Sequence record: PZ357121.2
Source of the DNA: a phage
Length of the DNA: 64,000 nt
Strand: one strand, 5' to 3'
Part shown: positions 1 to 8,117 of the stretch, piece by piece
How the letters are laid out: each line of letters starts with the position of its first letter
How positions within the stretch are numbered: the first letter of the stretch is position 1
The notes under the pieces: generated by a model
Told to the model about the DNA's origin: nothing
Database searches by the model: none
Seen by the model: the letters and a program-made list of their open reading frames with translations, nothing else
Program-made: the position numbers and the translations under genes

Positions 1-270
1 ATCAATTAATGAATCAACCACAAATTCATTTTCAGACCAGAAATATTTACGAGTGTTATATGCGTTATCTTTATACCATAATGGAACAAACTTAAATTCT
101 GGGAAAAGACGTTCGCATTCTTTAATATCAGATGCATTACGTGGATATGTAATCACATCACCCGGATTAGCACGGTGCAAATGAAGTTGGAAGTTGCCAT
201 CCTTAAGGATAGCATACTGTCCAGTTTCATAAGACCGCATACTCAAGATAGGTACGCGGAAAATAGCCAT
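1..270 (-). CDS. hypothetical protein, 5' part only (gene runs off window start); sits where T4 has beta-glucosyltransferase
   Basis: Manual minus-strand translation from ATG 270..268: MAIFRVPILSMRSYETGQYAILKDGNFQLHLHRANPGDVITYPR...; SD AAGGA upstream; TAATG overlap with stop of upstream gene. Confidence 0.5.
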   Translation of the reverse strand, partial: MAIFRVPILSMRSYETGQYAILKDGNFQLHLHRANPGDVITYPRNASDIKECERLFPEFKFVPLWYKDNAYNTRKYFWSENEFVVDSLID

Positions 271-986
271 TAGTCAAGGAATCCTTTAACATAATCAAAA
301 TCACGGTCAAACACATGGGCACTTACCATGGTATGAGTATAATCACCAACTTCTACACCACATTCTTTAGCGATATAATGAAGTAATTTTCCTTGGAGAT
401 AAAAATCCAACTGCATAACAACAGCACAGTTCTGAGAACGCATATGACAGTGGGTATAAAGCTTACCATCACGAATATAATAAGTCACTGAGTCAGTACA
501 TGGATATTCAAGTGTTTCGTCCGAATCAAGCAAAGCCTGATCTGAACTTTCAAGAATTTGAAACACAACTCTTCGTGAATTAGGTTTCTCTTTAAGTTCT
601 TTGAGAAGAGCTGGTAACTGGGCCGCAATTCGTGGACCATAGAAAGTGTTGAAGTTTGCAGGCAAAGCGTCTGATTTAGGTTTAGAAATAAATTTAGCAA
701 CGTTAGGATATGCCTTAAATGCTTCTTCTGCGTCGGTACCACCAGAAATCATAAATTTCCAGAAGTCTTCGGCATATTCATAAGAGATGCGGTTAATACG
801 TGGGTCGGTCATTTTGAATGATGATGGAGTGTCAACAACTACTGTCATAGACCCAATTTCATTACAACGTCCAATACGAGAATCAGTTACGAATTCCGGG
901 TTTTCTAAAATTTCACGATTGACTGCTTTAAATGCGGATTGAAAATCTGCGGCTTTGATATATTTCATTGTGTTATGTTTTCCCAT
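270..986 (-). CDS. thymidylate-synthase-fold pyrimidine hydroxymethylase (dCMP hydroxymethylase, gene 42 position)
   Basis: 238 aa; TS/dCMP-HMase motifs NSRRVVFQI, catalytic Cys in YPCTDSV, HMRSQN; SD GAGGT 5 nt before ATG. Confidence 0.8.
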   Translation of the reverse strand: MGKHNTMKYIKAADFQSAFKAVNREILENPEFVTDSRIGRCNEIGSMTVVVDTPSSFKMTDPRINRISYEYAEDFWKFMISGGTDAEEAFKAYPNVAKFISKPKSDALPANFNTFYGPRIAAQLPALLKELKEKPNSRRVVFQILESSDQALLDSDETLEYPCTDSVTYYIRDGKLYTHCHMRSQNCAVVMQLDFYLQGKLLHYIAKECGVEVGDYTHTMVSAHVFDRDFDYVKGFLD

Positions 987-1004
987 GTTTACCTCAATAC
1001 AGTT

Positions 1005-1030
1005 ATTATATACTCAATTCATAAAGCTTA
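1005..1030 (-). promoter_or_regulatory. candidate MotA-type middle promoter for the hydroxymethylase gene
   Basis: Minus strand reads AAGCTTTA (MotA-box-like) then 11 nt then TATAAT, about 20 nt upstream of ATG at 986. Confidence 0.3.
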
Positions 1031-1106
1031 TTTGAATTTCTTAGCGATGTTGATATAACGTAAAGCTTCAGCATCGATACTTCCAAGAACACTATGAAGA
1101 AATGCA

Positions 1107-1265
1107 TCAGCGTAGTATTCTAGTTGAACAGGTTTTAATCACTTTAGCCGCTTTAGTTTCAAACAGGCCCTTATGGGCCTTTTTAAGAATTTGTTCGTTG
1201 CTGTTAATTTTCGTAGTCAAAATCTCTTCGTTAAGTTGGTGGTTAAAAGTTTTTCTAGAAATCAT
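1107..1265 (-). CDS. small hypothetical protein (52 aa), below ORF-track cutoff
   Basis: ATG overlaps stop of upstream gene (ATGA); SD GAGGT 8 nt upstream; manual translation MISRKTFNHQLNEEILTTK... Confidence 0.3.
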   Translation of the reverse strand: MISRKTFNHQLNEEILTTKINSNEQILKKAHKGLFETKAAKVIKTCSTRILR

Positions 1266-2422
1266 TCTGGGTACCTCAAAGCGTCGTCAGAGTTAGTTAT
1301 ATCAATAATAGATATAGAATTTTCTGATAACCCATTTTTAGATAACTGACGTTTATAATATCTTTCACAATATGTACACGTCGTCCCGCAGATTTCATTA
1401 GCACAATCGAAATCTGGATGTTTGAACCACCTTTTTTCTAAAAAGCCATCTAACAAAGAGGTTTCAATATTTACCGTATGTGAAAACTCAGTTTCGTTTT
1501 CAAGAGTGAAAATGGTCTCTAAAGGCTTCCACAATTCCAACAAATTACCTTCAAATTTTTCAGAAGCATAAGCTTCAAGAACTTTCAAAATGTAGTCTGT
1601 GCTACCTGTACGTCCCGAAACTTTAAATTGGGTGATACCAATATCGTTATAAAGTTTCAAATCTTGTGGACGAACAAAACGAGTTCTCAACCAGTTAAAT
1701 GGGTCTGTATCACGAGCTTTAATACAGTGCTGCATTGGATATCCATTTAAGGATTTGGCATCATCTACTGTAACATCGGTGCTATGGAAAATATAGCAAG
1801 AGTCACGATAACTACAATGTGTTGTATACCCTTTACCAGCATTAGAACAGAACTCATTTACAAGAACTTCAAATATTATATTGTTCTTATTGCAAAACTC
1901 TGCTGCACGCTTCAGGAAAGAAACTGAACGGTTCTTATGAATTCCACAGCAGACCTTTTTGATATTATATTGGTCATGCAAGTATTTGATTTGAGTTACA
2001 GCATCGACATGTAGAATTGTTGAAACTTCAATCTCAATGTCTTTATTGACTTCACGAACAATTTCCATAACAACAGGGTTAGCGATAGTAATACGCCATA
2101 CGCCTATTGACCAAAGATACTGAACATAATCCTGAATAGCTTTCTTCTTCCACTCAACTAGTTCTCTTTTTGAACCAGGATTTATCGTGTTGAGTGTATA
2201 GTTAAAGCAAATACCTAATTCGTTACAACGTTTAACGTAATCTTCTAACATCTTTTTGTCAACGTCGGGAAGCCTAAAATCAGGTCTGGCTGCTACAAAA
2301 GCCATTTCTCTTGTAGAGCCGTATACTTCGTTTATCAAGCTATTAGGATAAGTTTTATTGAGCTCTACGATTTTATCAAGAAGAGCTAAATCAAAATTCG
2401 TTCCGATTTTAAAGGTATTCAT
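1262..2422 (-). CDS. peptidase-U32-like TIM-barrel protein with Cys cluster (putative Fe-S enzyme), function unknown
   Basis: 386 aa; U32-like segments (KIGTNFDLALLDKIVEL, FNYTLNTIN, EVLVNEFCSNAGKGYTTHC); C-terminal CANEICGTTCTYC. Confidence 0.75.
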   Translation of the reverse strand: MNTFKIGTNFDLALLDKIVELNKTYPNSLINEVYGSTREMAFVAARPDFRLPDVDKKMLEDYVKRCNELGICFNYTLNTINPGSKRELVEWKKKAIQDYVQYLWSIGVWRITIANPVVMEIVREVNKDIEIEVSTILHVDAVTQIKYLHDQYNIKKVCCGIHKNRSVSFLKRAAEFCNKNNIIFEVLVNEFCSNAGKGYTTHCSYRDSCYIFHSTDVTVDDAKSLNGYPMQHCIKARDTDPFNWLRTRFVRPQDLKLYNDIGITQFKVSGRTGSTDYILKVLEAYASEKFEGNLLELWKPLETIFTLENETEFSHTVNIETSLLDGFLEKRWFKHPDFDCANEICGTTCTYCERYYKRQLSKNGLSENSISIIDITNSDDALRYPE

Positions 2423-2476: not shown

Positions 2477-2863
2477 TTATAGATTCGGTTTATATGATTT
2501 AAATGTTTCGAATTCGCCTTTATTCATAAGAGCTTTGAATTCGTCAGGACGCATAGCTTTGTCGTCGATAATCCAATCATATACTGGTTTATGTGTTAGC
2601 AAATTATGGTACTTCAATCCAATGTTTGCCAAGTTCTGAATCAGACTTGGGAGAATGTCAATTGCTATACGACCAGGACCGACTGACTTCATACCGCGAG
2701 CAGTGTAAAGCGTTATGGTATGCCCTGCATCATACAGGGCATTAATGGCAGACACCATTTCGACGTCTGGTTTGAAGTTCACGTAATCACGATTGTTATT
2801 CCACTCTGTTATACAATCATCGACATCAAAACAAAGATTAAGCATGTTTTCTACACGGTGCAT
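2477..2863 (-). CDS. HAD-superfamily phosphatase (small, GmhB/HisB-N-like)
   Basis: 128 aa from ATG 2863 (TAATG overlap with upstream stop); HAD motifs FDVDDCI, TLYTARG, HKP, IIDD. Confidence 0.75.
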   Translation of the reverse strand: MHRVENMLNLCFDVDDCITEWNNNRDYVNFKPDVEMVSAINALYDAGHTITLYTARGMKSVGPGRIAIDILPSLIQNLANIGLKYHNLLTHKPVYDWIIDDKAMRPDEFKALMNKGEFETFKSYKPNL

Positions 2864-4548
2864 TAGATTCGTTCCCATTGATGAGTGATATCGCCACCGA
2901 TTGGACGATAAGAAACACCAGTTTCTTTATCAGTTAGTACCCATTTACCAGGATTTTTTGTAATCAGAGTAGCCGTTACAGGTTCTGCTACATCATAACT
3001 AATAGTGCCGTCCTGAAGTACACGGCCCATGTTACGTAATTGCTTAGTCAGAAGTTCCATACCTTTATAATATGCGGCTACCGCTTTAAGTGGATTATTC
3101 TTGAAATAACCACCTAATGCAATCCAGATAATTGCCACTGCCAAATGATGATACTCGTTAAACGAACTCATCTTTCCATATTTGTAAACTAACGGATTGA
3201 TGTTAATAGTCACATTACAAGTTGTTTCATCAATAGTAAACTGTCCCCAAGTCGGATTAGCGTTGAATTCATCATAACCTGAAACAGCGTAAAGCACTTT
3301 AGCTTCATCATACAATTTTGGCCCATAAATCTTGGTTTCACCAAAATATCCACGAGGGTCGATAAACTTGACTTCACCATTATCAGTAATCATAGTATTA
3401 CTGAAGTTCGGGTCACCATGAATAACAGAGTACTGTCCCTGAGAACGGTTATGATAACGAATAAGGTGTTCTAAAGCTTGTTTCAACATTGGCTTCAGAC
3501 GCCCAATCTTAGTGTAGTTCACATGTGTGATTTTACCAAATGAATCAATCAATGGTTGAATACTTTCACAACGATCAATAACTTTAGTATAGAATTCTTT
3601 AGTGAAATCACGACGAACAGTTTCAGGACTTACAAAATAAGTGTCTGTGCTGAATTTCAGTGCATCTAAAATTGCATCAACAATTTGTGGACGAGCAAGA
3701 CTTGATTTGGATTTAATATATTCAAATGCCGGCTTACCTTTAATGCGTTCCATTTCAAAGTTATTTTCATTAACAGAAACTAACTGAGGAACTGAATCTG
3801 ATTTCACTTTAAGATACCATGAAATCTCATCTTTCTGAAGAGCTCGGCCCTGTTCGGTTAATGCGAATTTAGTTACAGTTTCTTCACCAATTTCAACTGC
3901 ATTAAAACTACGATTAAGTTCACGAACTTCATGAGCTTTTTCAAGTTTAGGCATATCACCTAAATCAATTAGATTCATAAGCTCTGATTTATTGAATGCG
4001 CTGCCGTAAAGGAATTCTACGAAATCACGTCCTTTGCAGTATTCATGAATTTCCTCATCAGTAGAACCCATATAGAATTCCCAGTCTTTGAACTGATAAA
4101 TTCCTACAACATTACCACCTGTTGAACCTACATTAGTGATATTTTCACCGTCGAAATTATATCGACATTCGTCACCCTTAACATAGATTGCGTTAACATT
4201 CCAAGACCACGAACCAAAATCAGGAATAATATCACACCAGTTAACAATTACATTATGGCCGTCTAAATCTTTGTGCAATTTAGCAAGAGCATAAGCAGAA
4301 CCATACGCTTCATCAACTGTACGAATAGTCACATTGAACCCTTCTTGCTCACAATAAGCTCGAACAGTTTCAGCAAATTTTGAATGAACTACTACAATAA
4401 TTTCATCTGCGCCAAGGTCAGAATAAATTGTATACAAATTGCTCAGAATAGTGTCTTGTTTATAGTTAACAAGCACCTTAGGAATATGATGCGTTATTGG
4501 ATACAAACGAGTTGCCAGTCCAGCACCAAGAATAACAGCTTTTTTCAT
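2863..4548 (-). CDS. bifunctional sugar-1-phosphate nucleotidyltransferase / sugar kinase
   Basis: 561 aa; N-terminal NTP-transferase motif ILGAGLATRLYPIT..PKVLV; C-terminal APH/choline-kinase-fold motifs IHGDPNFSN and FIDPRGY; SD GAGGA. Confidence 0.85.
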   Translation of the reverse strand: MKKAVILGAGLATRLYPITHHIPKVLVNYKQDTILSNLYTIYSDLGADEIIVVVHSKFAETVRAYCEQEGFNVTIRTVDEAYGSAYALAKLHKDLDGHNVIVNWCDIIPDFGSWSWNVNAIYVKGDECRYNFDGENITNVGSTGGNVVGIYQFKDWEFYMGSTDEEIHEYCKGRDFVEFLYGSAFNKSELMNLIDLGDMPKLEKAHEVRELNRSFNAVEIGEETVTKFALTEQGRALQKDEISWYLKVKSDSVPQLVSVNENNFEMERIKGKPAFEYIKSKSSLARPQIVDAILDALKFSTDTYFVSPETVRRDFTKEFYTKVIDRCESIQPLIDSFGKITHVNYTKIGRLKPMLKQALEHLIRYHNRSQGQYSVIHGDPNFSNTMITDNGEVKFIDPRGYFGETKIYGPKLYDEAKVLYAVSGYDEFNANPTWGQFTIDETTCNVTININPLVYKYGKMSSFNEYHHLAVAIIWIALGGYFKNNPLKAVAAYYKGMELLTKQLRNMGRVLQDGTISYDVAEPVTATLITKNPGKWVLTDKETGVSYRPIGGDITHQWERI

Positions 4549-5405: not shown

Positions 5406-8117
5406 TCAAAAATCGAACATATCGAACAGAGATGCTTTCTTCTCGTAATCGAGTTTCGCTGCTGATGTGAATCCTTCAAGTGGTTTAATAAATGTCTTCT
5501 CAAGGAGAACAGTGTAGTCCATCCAATGAAGTACATCGTCTTTAATTAAATCTGTGATTTCAGTACCAGAAGGCCATGCGATACATTTATCACCGAATGG
5601 GTTTCCTTCACGTAAAGGCAGAACATATACTTTTTCACCTTCTACAACTTGCGGTGCATCGATATTACCTTTGATAGCCCGGTTATACGTCAGAATTCCA
5701 CGAATATGGAACGGGCATTTAGGACCAGGGAATCCACCTACATCATATTTAGCAATGTTATTCGCAGAAGATACCGACGCGATGCTAATATAATTCAATT
5801 GACGGAATTCTTTTTCAAACTCTTTAAAATATTCTTGTAATGATTCTTCACCTTCTTGAAGCATACGACGAATACATTCTTTAAGAGCTTTCTGTACTGC
5901 TTTAGGAGTCGAAGATTTCTGAGTCTCTAGACCCATGATTTTGAGTTTAGGCTCAGCGTATCTGGTTCCTTCCATATCCCACACGTTTAATGCATAACGT
6001 TTCTTACCAGTCCAGAATCCACCAATACCTTTAGAACCGAGTGGAGGACCAGCGATAGCTTCTCGGTCCATGAACATTAAGTGTTGTTTATTGTTCATGT
6101 ATTCACACATTTCACGGAAACCTCTATCAATAGCAGGTTCCATACGTTCACGTGCAAACTTATCTAAGAAGTCTACCCAATGGTTGGTATCACGGAATTT
6201 AGATTCACCAACCTTATCGATAATTTTATCAGCAGATACGTAAATAGAGTCCGTATCACCATAAAGAACGAAAGCTTCACCTTCCGTACCACAAACTTCA
6301 TTCAGATATTCATTAACTTTACGTTCAATCCACTGTAAAGCCATTTGACCAAATGTTGTGATTGCAGTAGCATTACGCAAATCATAATAACGGAACCAAA
6401 CGTTGCCAAGTGCACCATAAAGTGAGTTGATAAGCAATTTACGGTTAATTTGGGCAGTCATACCTGCAACTTCAGTACGTTGAGCTCTAAACAACATTTC
6501 GTTAAGAGATTTAGCGGACAACTTTTTAATCTTTTCTTTAATCTCATCACTGAAGTCGAAACGATAATCAACATCTAATGGTTCGTCAACAGAAAGATTA
6601 GGATTATGCAATGCCTCTTTAATTATTTCACCATTACGTTGAGCTGCAAGCATGTAACCTTTATGTTCTTTACGTTGATTAAAGACCTTAGTGATTTCAG
6701 TTGGAACAACACCGTCACGGTCTTTATAATACATCATGCCGTTAGGAGAGCAACTATACACATCTGAAGGACGTTCAGCAACAGCGTTAATATAATCATG
6801 CAATGGAGCTACTTTAAACGTTCCTGCTATTGTTTCTGGGCTAATATTCACTTGGCGAATAATACTTGGATACAGAGATGTAAGGTCGAAACTCATTACA
6901 TATTTGTATCGATTTGGAATAGGTTCCTTAACAAAAGCGCCGGGATAAGGTTGAACCGGGTGAGAACGACCTTGTGGAATCACCTTGTTCTGCTCTTTAA
7001 GGCTATTAAAAATAATAGCATCCCATGTTTTAATTGGGCTAAACACAGATTGAATCTGAATTTTAGCATAATAACCCATGTCCAAACTCAAGTTGATGAA
7101 CTGACGCTTAGCATCAATTTGCAATACACGATACACGTCGATAATGTTATAAGAAATATATCGTTGGTGATTGCTTTCACGAAGCTTAGAAATAGGGCCG
7201 TCATATTTCAGTTTACCAACGTTCAATTCAAATTCTGAAATGTAATCCAGAGAATATGATGGTTGATTGGTAAAAGAGAATTTTTTGTAAAGGTCAATGT
7301 AATCAAGAACAGAGATACCGAACAATGTAATGATTTCACGAGAACCATACATGTTTTCGATAACTTTAACACGAGTTTTACGATGTGGTGACAAACGTTT
7401 CGCAGTAGATTCGCCAAAAATATTCTTGATTCGGTTATACACATATGGAATATCAAATGACTCAACGTTCCATCCAGTCAAAATGACAGGAGTTTTTTGT
7501 TGCCAGAAGTTGAGATATTCCATCAACAATTCTTTTTCGTTATCGAACGGCATATAAATGATTTTATCGATAATTTCGGATGGAACTTCATCACCACCTT
7601 GTTCTTGAAGCTTAGCCGCAATTTCAATAGACCATTCTTCTACATTACCATATGGAGAATTCAATAGATCAAATACGTAGAACCTGTCATCAATTGAGTC
7701 ATAATGGGTGATAGCATCAATTGGATGTTTTGCTTGTGACGGCTCAGGGAACCCATCTGGAGATGTTACTTCGATGTCGAAGTTAGCCACACGAATTTTT
7801 GTATGGTCGTATTTAATTTCATAGTTATAAGTGTCAGACAAATACGCCAATTTGAAATCGTCCATGCCAAGTGCTTCAAGTCCGATATCTTCCATGCGTT
7901 TAATCCATTGGGAGGCATCACGCATATTAGCGAACAACTTACGAGTACACGGCTTACCATAGATATCGAAATATTTCGTAGCCTGACTTTCCGGACAATG
8001 AGCAAACAGTGATGGTTTATATTCTACTTCACGAGTACGTTCACGGCCGTTAGAATCGATGTAACGTTCAAAAATTGAATCACCAATCTGTTCAACCGTT
8101 AAGTAAAATTCTTTCAT
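5406..8117 (-). CDS. 43: DNA polymerase gp43 (family B, with 3'-5' exonuclease)
   Basis: 903 aa; N-terminus MKEFYLTVEQIGDSIFERYIDSNGRERTREVEY; exo motifs FDIE, YNIIDVY; pol motifs DLTSLYPS, YGDTDS; matches RB69/T4 gp43. Confidence 0.97.
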   Translation of the reverse strand: MKEFYLTVEQIGDSIFERYIDSNGRERTREVEYKPSLFAHCPESQATKYFDIYGKPCTRKLFANMRDASQWIKRMEDIGLEALGMDDFKLAYLSDTYNYEIKYDHTKIRVANFDIEVTSPDGFPEPSQAKHPIDAITHYDSIDDRFYVFDLLNSPYGNVEEWSIEIAAKLQEQGGDEVPSEIIDKIIYMPFDNEKELLMEYLNFWQQKTPVILTGWNVESFDIPYVYNRIKNIFGESTAKRLSPHRKTRVKVIENMYGSREIITLFGISVLDYIDLYKKFSFTNQPSYSLDYISEFELNVGKLKYDGPISKLRESNHQRYISYNIIDVYRVLQIDAKRQFINLSLDMGYYAKIQIQSVFSPIKTWDAIIFNSLKEQNKVIPQGRSHPVQPYPGAFVKEPIPNRYKYVMSFDLTSLYPSIIRQVNISPETIAGTFKVAPLHDYINAVAERPSDVYSCSPNGMMYYKDRDGVVPTEITKVFNQRKEHKGYMLAAQRNGEIIKEALHNPNLSVDEPLDVDYRFDFSDEIKEKIKKLSAKSLNEMLFRAQRTEVAGMTAQINRKLLINSLYGALGNVWFRYYDLRNATAITTFGQMALQWIERKVNEYLNEVCGTEGEAFVLYGDTDSIYVSADKIIDKVGESKFRDTNHWVDFLDKFARERMEPAIDRGFREMCEYMNNKQHLMFMDREAIAGPPLGSKGIGGFWTGKKRYALNVWDMEGTRYAEPKLKIMGLETQKSSTPKAVQKALKECIRRMLQEGEESLQEYFKEFEKEFRQLNYISIASVSSANNIAKYDVGGFPGPKCPFHIRGILTYNRAIKGNIDAPQVVEGEKVYVLPLREGNPFGDKCIAWPSGTEITDLIKDDVLHWMDYTVLLEKTFIKPLEGFTSAAKLDYEKKASLFDMFDF

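Follow-up and report, generated by a model that had tools for sequence, protein, structure and literature searches.

A truncated gene in the beta-GT slot of an RB69-like phage is the start of an ortholog of RB69 gp46:47, the probable first arabinosyltransferase

Introduction

T4 beta-glucosyltransferase (beta-GT), which represents CAZy family GT63, is an inverting enzyme that transfers glucose from UDP-Glc onto hmC-DNA. The DNA of phage RB69 carries beta-D-Araf-(1,3)-alpha-D-Araf-5-hydroxy-2'-deoxycytidine, which has no methylene bridge (PMC13326640; PMC13390438). Lee et al. showed that a D169N signature is diagnostic of flavin-dependent 5-hydroxy-dCMP synthases (PMC13326640), and the proteins AfhE and AfhF of phage HY126 have been reported to produce UDP-D-arabinose, with AfhE having UDP-D-arabinose pyrophosphorylase activity (PMC13326640). 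RB69 gp46:47 was proposed by Lee et al. (NAR 2026) as "arabinosyltransferase 1," which would put alpha-D-Araf onto 5-hydroxycytosine (5hoC) (PMC13326640), and in Thanatos, whose DNA is mono-arabinosylated, a gp46:47-type glycosyltransferase (GT) is the only GT (PMC13326640; PMC13390438). Among the hypermodifications of phage DNA, arabinosyl-5-hydroxycytosine was defined only recently. It blocks type II restriction and makes therapeutic Mosigviruses more difficult to sequence and engineer, and protection from type I CRISPR-Cas and from the glycosylase Brig1 has been reported for it. In the accessible literature, the initiating transfer is the only step of this pathway that lacks biochemical proof.

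The current study concerns a 64-kb stretch of phage DNA, hereafter the window, at whose edge an earlier note had recognized a truncated gene in the beta-GT position and proposed it as a candidate DNA pentosyl/arabinosyl transferase. The fragment represents the N-terminus of a highly diverged, 299-aa RB69 gp46:47 ortholog with a GT-B fold, which probably puts the first alpha-Araf from UDP-D-Araf onto 5hoC. The assignment as arabinosyltransferase 1 is already in the literature, with which this guess agrees, and its novelty is therefore low.

Results

The bases A270-T269-G268 of the minus strand form the ATG that opens the reading frame of the fragment. The A of this ATG is at the same time the final base of the TAA (272..270) of the upstream ORF, and the resulting TAATG overlap (minus-strand sequence ...GGATTCCTTGACTAATGGCTATT...) suggests translational coupling with the upstream ThyA homolog. 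The translation of 270..1 (-) comprises 90 stop-free codons and starts MAIFRVPILSMRSYETGQYAILKDG..., and the frame leaves the window at position 1. Both the frame and the overlap described in the earlier note are real on the minus strand, and our translation (MAIFRVPILSMRSYETGQYAILKDGNFQLHLHRANPGDV...) agrees with its reading.

1..270, minus strand: 5' part (90 of 299 codons) of the GT gene up to the window edge, orthologous to RB69 gp46:47 (proposed "arabinosyltransferase 1")

The fragment belongs to a real gene because it is identical in 89/89 residues to the 299-aa database protein P0001, matches PHROG 3891 (E=3e-48; full-length SSE1 ortholog, E=2e-155), and has homologs in 349 phage records (tblastn). 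A chance ORF or pseudogene is ruled out by the conservation of the 299-aa ORF across 341 of these records, which cover at least 80% of it. PHROG 3891, a family without functional annotation, is the sole profile-family match of the protein. A megablast search with positions 1..1300 gave matches in 230 phage records, with identities of 95-99% in 152, and the best matches were all Mosigvirus, i.e., RB69-like T-even phages (SSE1, 98.0%; RB69, 97.1%); judged by this nucleotide identity of 97-98%, the window is assigned to an RB69-like Mosigvirus. At the GT locus, SSE1, JS09, and HY126 have one 900-nt ORF of 299 aa (XAN60474.1 in HY126), which the annotation of the RB69 record divides into ORF047c (182 aa) and ORF046c (116 aa). 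The alignment traced this split to a single extra T at gene nucleotide 545, regarded by Lee et al. as a sequencing error (PMC13326640). The full-length ORF is intact in all close relatives but the RB69 record, and its codons 91-299 lie outside the window. Codon 90 is GAT (Asp) in the window and GCT (Ala) in RB69 and SSE1, a difference of one base at window position 2, beside the edge, which falls into helix alpha3 of the structure model.

Structure prediction was the only informative route to the identity of the GT, since sequence-based searches all failed. The protein had no match in Pfam or NCBIfam at E<=1 and none in the PDB, neither in phmmer searches with the single sequence nor with a 50-sequence profile of the family. 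The lack of resemblance to T4 beta-GT stated in the earlier note is borne out by BLASTP, which gave nothing (E=3.7 for the full length, 5.4 for the fragment), and by hhalign of the 50-sequence family profile against T4 beta-GT (probability 0.2%); the corresponding value for RB69 gp3 was 0.6%. With T4 alpha-GT, T4 beta-GT, and RB69 gp3 as tblastn queries, no homolog was detected in the whole 64-kb window. The GT family is small, and it is phage-borne wherever the source was examined: 138 relatives, all unnamed and devoid of Pfam domains, were found among 5.8 billion proteins searched, and no more than 225 family members emerged when 1.84 billion representatives were searched exhaustively with an HMM.

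The structure model was built on P0001, which closely corresponds to the SSE1 protein (99% identity over 299 positions). AlphaFold2 with P0001 and 50 diverse homologs reached a pLDDT of 95.3 and a pTM of 0.89 and predicted two Rossmann-like beta/alpha/beta domains separated by a cleft, i.e., a GT-B fold, in which the 90 residues of the window span beta1 to alpha3 of the N-terminal Rossmann-like, acceptor-side domain. The search for a GT-A or GT-B fold that the earlier note had recommended, negative for Pfam and PDB profiles, hence ended with a GT-B model of P0001. BFVD returned the family itself first, followed by viral group-1 glycosyltransferases, and the BFVD models of RB69 ORF047c and ORF046c overlay the N- and C-terminal halves (TM 0.97). 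Foldseek against the PDB found MshA 3c4q and the fold-related UDP-GlcNAc 2-epimerases (E about 1e-6). The best PDB E-values belong to these epimerases and would fit a GT-B-fold protein that is not a transferase, e.g., a UDP-sugar 2-epimerase-like enzyme acting on a nucleotide sugar; they share the GT-B fold, and a Pfam match to Epimerase_2 is absent, and we consider such an enzyme extremely improbable.

Seventeen residues are conserved in at least 89% of 229 near-full-length members. Nine of these family-wide invariant positions fall in the window fragment (S10, R12, Y19, D24, G25, N26, P43, Y66, and R74), and the others are Q151, P195, R197, D200, Y203, N225, H270, and E275. For R197, D200, H270, and E275, conservation among the 229 members amounts to 89-99%, and in the model these four fall at the secondary-structure positions expected of nucleotide-sugar-binding residues: R197 follows the first strand of the C-domain, and H270 and E275 are located at the N-terminus of a C-domain helix. 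Going by topology, R197, H270, and E275 may occupy the positions where GT-B enzymes bind the diphosphate and ribose of the donor. The E-x7-E motif of GT4 enzymes is not kept, because position 267 is variable in the family, and an invariant H270-P-G...E275 stands in its place.

The gene directly upstream had been taken for a hydroxymethylase in the earlier note.

270..986, minus strand: 238-aa thymidylate-synthase homolog, dCMP 5-hydroxylase (5hodCMP synthase), according to Pfam PF00303, PDB identity, motif, and PMC13326640

The 238-aa ORF matches Pfam Thymidylat_synt (PF00303) and shares ~98% identity with three solved structures, PDB 9iqc/9ir2/9iqu, whose codes are in the same range as 9iqz and 9ir0, entries titled "phage HY126 glycosyltransferase." Motif alignments show RSQN at the position where T4 gp42 has RSND, which corresponds to the D169N signature of Lee et al. 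This signature and the identity to the solved structures mark the upstream gene as that of a ThyA-family dCMP 5-hydroxylase, and the designation as hydroxymethylase has to be abandoned. Since the RB69 DNA modification lacks a methylene bridge and a hydroxylase signature is found upstream, the acceptor would be 5hoC, not hmC. The GT-B fold, the context, and the published proposal support the suggested pentosyl/arabinosyl transferase, but with 5hoC instead of the hmC acceptor that the note had envisaged.

The following genes of the window lie upstream of the hydroxylase gene.

1031..1265, minus strand: small ORF, RB69 gp49 homolog, frameshifted relative to RB69 (tblastn: two HSPs in different frames)
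1262..2422, minus strand: 386-aa peptidase-U32-family protein, RB69 gp50 homolog (Pfam PF01136, E=6e-11)
2477..2878, minus strand: HAD-like phosphatase, RB69 gp51 / HY126 AfhF homolog (function from PMC13326640)
2863..4548, minus strand: 561-aa bifunctional sugar-1-phosphate nucleotidyltransferase/kinase, RB69 gp52:53 / HY126 AfhE homolog (Pfam NTP_transferase; NCBIfam; PMC13326640)
4730..5365, minus strand: 211-aa SIS-domain arabinose-5-phosphate isomerase, RB69 gp55 homolog (Pfam SIS)

In the window, the sugar-donor module that had been noticed next to the fragment belongs to a cluster of the SIS isomerase, the 561-aa NTP-transferase/kinase, the HAD-like protein, and the U32-family protein. 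Within this cluster it is the 561-aa nucleotidyltransferase/kinase that serves as the NDP-arabinose synthase proper. It is a single intact ORF in the window and split into ORF053c and ORF052c in the RB69 record; the RB69 GenBank record (L001:2750-4436, 7033-7933) is an unsuitable model for the split nucleotidyltransferase/kinase and transferase genes. Annotated homologs of the HAD-like ORF have 128 aa and start 5 codons further in. The gp49-like small ORF is located between the U32 gene and the hydroxylase gene; RB69 gp49 has 79 aa, and only a 40-aa ORF is annotated at the matching spot in HY126.

One published experiment would assign the synthesis of the activated sugar to the GT-family protein itself. 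Brandt et al. incubated His-tagged TH1_063 (300 aa) of Thanatos with UTP and xylose-1-phosphate and reported a product that had UDP-xylose mass and an MS/MS pattern to match (PMC12838424). TH2_066, which corresponds to TH1_063 in Thanatos-2, shares 47-48% identity with the Mosigvirus GT. A UDP-pentose pyrophosphorylase, which makes the activated sugar instead of transferring it, is hard to reconcile with the predicted fold, which is GT-B and not that of sugar-1-phosphate nucleotidyltransferases; the Pfam search revealed no NTP_transferase signature, and the cluster already has a genuine NTP-transferase/kinase (Pfam, NCBIfam), whose HY126 homolog AfhE reportedly acts as a UDP-D-arabinose pyrophosphorylase. 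A no-enzyme reaction is the only control described in the accessible part of the report (PMC12838424), so that a co-purified E. coli uridylyltransferase may have formed the product. We regard a pyrophosphorylase function as very improbable.

The U32 protein (1262..2422) also has a weak NCBIfam match to UbiU; besides RlhA and TrhP, UbiU/V are further U32 hydroxylases. RlhA and TrhP catalyze the prephenate-dependent C5-hydroxylation of pyrimidines, including the formation of 5-hydroxycytidine in 23S rRNA, and the route of TrhP operates without O2 (PMC6599085). The flavin-dependent ThyA-type hydroxylase of the phage uses O2, and by analogy with the O2-free TrhP route the U32 protein could therefore provide gut phages with an anaerobic route to 5-hydroxycytosine. 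Lee et al. enter this protein only as a "sugar or heterocycle reductase" (PMC13326640). In an alignment with TrhP, E162 and C170 have counterparts in the phage protein (FEVLVNEFC) and C177 has none; the phage U32 proteins have an extra C-terminal CxxxCxxC motif. The U32 protein shares 79% identity with its Thanatos-2 counterpart and 48% with that of a distant contig.

The gene order of T4 is 43, imm.1, imm, 42, beta-gt, segA, uvsX, 40, 41, and that of Mosigvirus is 43, sugar cluster, ThyA homolog, GT gene, thymidylate-kinase-like gene, uvsX, 40, 41. The GT gene therefore occupies the beta-gt slot, in agreement with the position inferred for it earlier. A trio consisting of an N-type (RSxN) ThyA homolog, the GT, and a gp45-like kinase is found in RB69, SSE1, Thanatos-2, and three distant metagenomic phage contigs. 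This synteny and co-occurrence hold for every lineage sampled, in which the trio genes are adjacent and often have overlapping stop and start codons; HY126 likewise has a gp45-like kinase gene downstream of the GT gene. Within the window only the upstream (ThyA) side of the trio is visible, and the kinase was seen in RB69, SSE1, and HY126. The GTs of the distant contigs L005, L009, and L010 (217, 356, and 169 kb) are 37-39% identical, and their ThyA homologs have RSNN or RSQN. A homolog of the bifunctional NTP-transferase/kinase is present in L005 and L009 and absent from L010. No SIS or NTP-transferase genes were found in the 15 kb examined at the L010 locus, so another sugar may serve there. 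On the same contig (L010:5715-6275), a Flavodoxin_2 gene, encoding an NAD(P)H-dependent FMN reductase-like protein, directly precedes the N-type ThyA homolog, which is consistent with flavin-dependent hydroxylase chemistry.

Two types of natural fusion proteins were identified.

P0224, P0231, P0238, P0245, P0253, P0260, P0210; L015:5412-7064: GT-kinase fusions
P0140, P0149, P0151, P0153, P0167, P0179, P0234; L014:733-2343: N-domain-GT fusions

In the seven GT-kinase fusions, the GT domain is followed by ~200 residues with homology to the gp45-type kinase (hhalign 94.6%, E=7e-8), and this C-terminal domain has sub-threshold Pfam matches to Thymidylate_kin. Single-sequence phmmer searches with RB69 gp45 and gp51 found nothing among the fusion partners, and the kinase link comes from profile-profile comparison. 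Most fusion proteins are encoded on contigs of 1.7-2.5 kb without context; L015 alone is informative, where SIS, NTP-transferase/kinase, and U32 genes come immediately after the fusion gene. The seven other fusions consist of a ~185-residue N-terminal domain followed by the GT. This domain, which may be HAD-like (sub-threshold Pfam matches only), is homologous (hhalign 99.3%) to a small protein that L005 and L009 encode as a separate gene upstream of their ThyA homologs, and it is not detectably related to RB69 gp51 (hhalign 0.3%). A P-loop kinase-like gene precedes the L014 fusion.

A full-length distant GT homolog (hhalign 99.2%) occupies the same slot in Serratia phage PS2 (L012:5001-5927; FF83_gp042). 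PS2 is an hmC phage: its gp42 shares 59% identity with T4 gp42 and contains the RSND motif, and the genome encodes beta-gt as well as a beta-glucosyl-HMC-alpha-glucosyltransferase. The PS2 homolog has lost most of the family-invariant residues to substitutions, for example at R12, K23, G25, N26, R197, and H270. This degenerate homolog may be a remnant or may have taken on another function.

Discussion

The following pathway is proposed for the first arabinosylation. The GT gene would be co-transcribed with the dCMP 5-hydroxylase gene upstream and the thymidylate-kinase-like gene downstream, and it is probably translationally coupled to these two neighbors. The adjacent isomerase, kinase-nucleotidyltransferase, and phosphatase module would supply UDP-D-arabinofuranose, from which the GT would attach the first, alpha-linked arabinofuranose to 5-hydroxycytosine at its 5-hydroxyl. 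The beta-1,3 arabinose would then be put on by another GT, the GT4-like gp3 homolog, whose gene lies outside the window. A retaining mechanism is suggested because the closest folds are those of retaining GT4 enzymes and the published linkage is alpha. The comparisons establish the identity, full length, fold, synteny, and co-occurrence of the gene; the donor, the acceptor, which may be DNA or a nucleotide, and this stereochemistry are inferred.

In the accessible literature, there is no demonstration of glycosyl transfer by any family member. Published assays of orthologs were negative or used acceptors without a 5-OH. The purified DLP3 GTs, including the ortholog gp79, did not singly arabinosylate 5hoC-DNA, whether UDP-Araf or UDP-Arap was the donor (PMC13326640, mentioned there as data not shown), and Thanatos TH1_063 with UDP-xylose did not modify plasmid DNA, dCMP, or dCTP (PMC12838424).

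Lee et al. could not distinguish between a first arabinosylation of the mononucleotide and a post-replicative one (PMC13326640). If the GT acted before replication, its substrate would be 5hodCMP; after phosphorylation of the bulky glycosylated nucleotide by the gp45-type kinase, arabinosyl-5hodCTP would be used by the polymerase, and such a phage would be the first known to build and polymerize a glycosylated dNTP. The gene order of hydroxylase, transferase, and kinase would mirror the order of these reactions, and the constant adjacency of the trio with its overlapping stop and start codons, the natural GT-kinase fusions, and the inactivity of the single DLP3 GTs on 5hoC-DNA (PMC13326640) are all compatible with this route. 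Moreover, the RB69 gp1-type kinase gp159 already turns 5hodCMP into 5hodCDP, and gp159 and gp48 suffice for 5hoC in DNA. The conserved and sometimes fused gp45-type kinase is therefore left without an assigned role, and its redundancy with gp159 keeps the synthesis at the nucleotide level open. However, the characterized T-even sugar transferases all act on DNA, DLP3 gp76 and gp77 put a third arabinose on DNA (PMC13326640), and the fusion of neighboring genes is no proof of a common substrate. Polymerases are reportedly poor with glycosylated dNTPs, as stated in the accessible part of bioRxiv 10.64898/2026.07.20.739590. With a median pI of 5.1 the family is acidic, but so are T4 alpha-GT (6.1), gp3 (6.3), and PS2 beta-GT (5.9), and the pI was therefore dropped as a clue to DNA versus nucleotide substrates. 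On balance, a first arabinosyltransferase acting before replication appears rather unlikely.

For the preferred reading as arabinosyltransferase 1, the window adds nothing to the assignment, and the residual interest lies in the biochemistry of the initiating step. New in the current study are the GT-kinase and HAD-GT fusions, the latter with a putative HAD-like domain, the family-wide invariant residues, and the degenerate homolog in an hmC phage. Handles on the initiating step are the hydroxylase-GT-kinase trio, the fusions, the 17 invariant residues, and this degenerate paralog.

With respect to known systems, T4 beta-GT occupies the same genomic slot, downstream of a gene-42-type ThyA homolog and upstream of uvsX, and would resemble the window GT in fold class (GT-B) and in putting a sugar onto a C5-modified cytosine. 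The two differ in that sequence and profile homology are absent and that the acceptor is hmC-DNA in T4 and would be 5hoC here. Retaining GT4-type GT-B enzymes (6kih sucrose-phosphate synthase, BshA 6n1x, PimA 2gej, and MshA 3c4q) and T4 alpha-GT 1y6f are only 7-12% identical; these enzymes have 340-400 aa, compared with 299 aa in the window family, which has no match to Pfam Glycos_transf_1 or Glyco_trans_4. In its predicted model, the window-family GT resembles GT4 by fold only. RB69 gp3 and the HY126 glycosyltransferase (PDB 9iqz, 9ir0), the proposed second (beta) arabinosyltransferase, are GT4-like with a solved structure; in RB69, the gene for gp3 lies between rIIA and the topoisomerase gene, and gp3 is unrelated to the window GT by profile comparison. 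The closest described systems are RB69 gp46:47, DLP3 gp79, and Thanatos TH1_063 (PHROG 3891), which belong to the same family as the window fragment.
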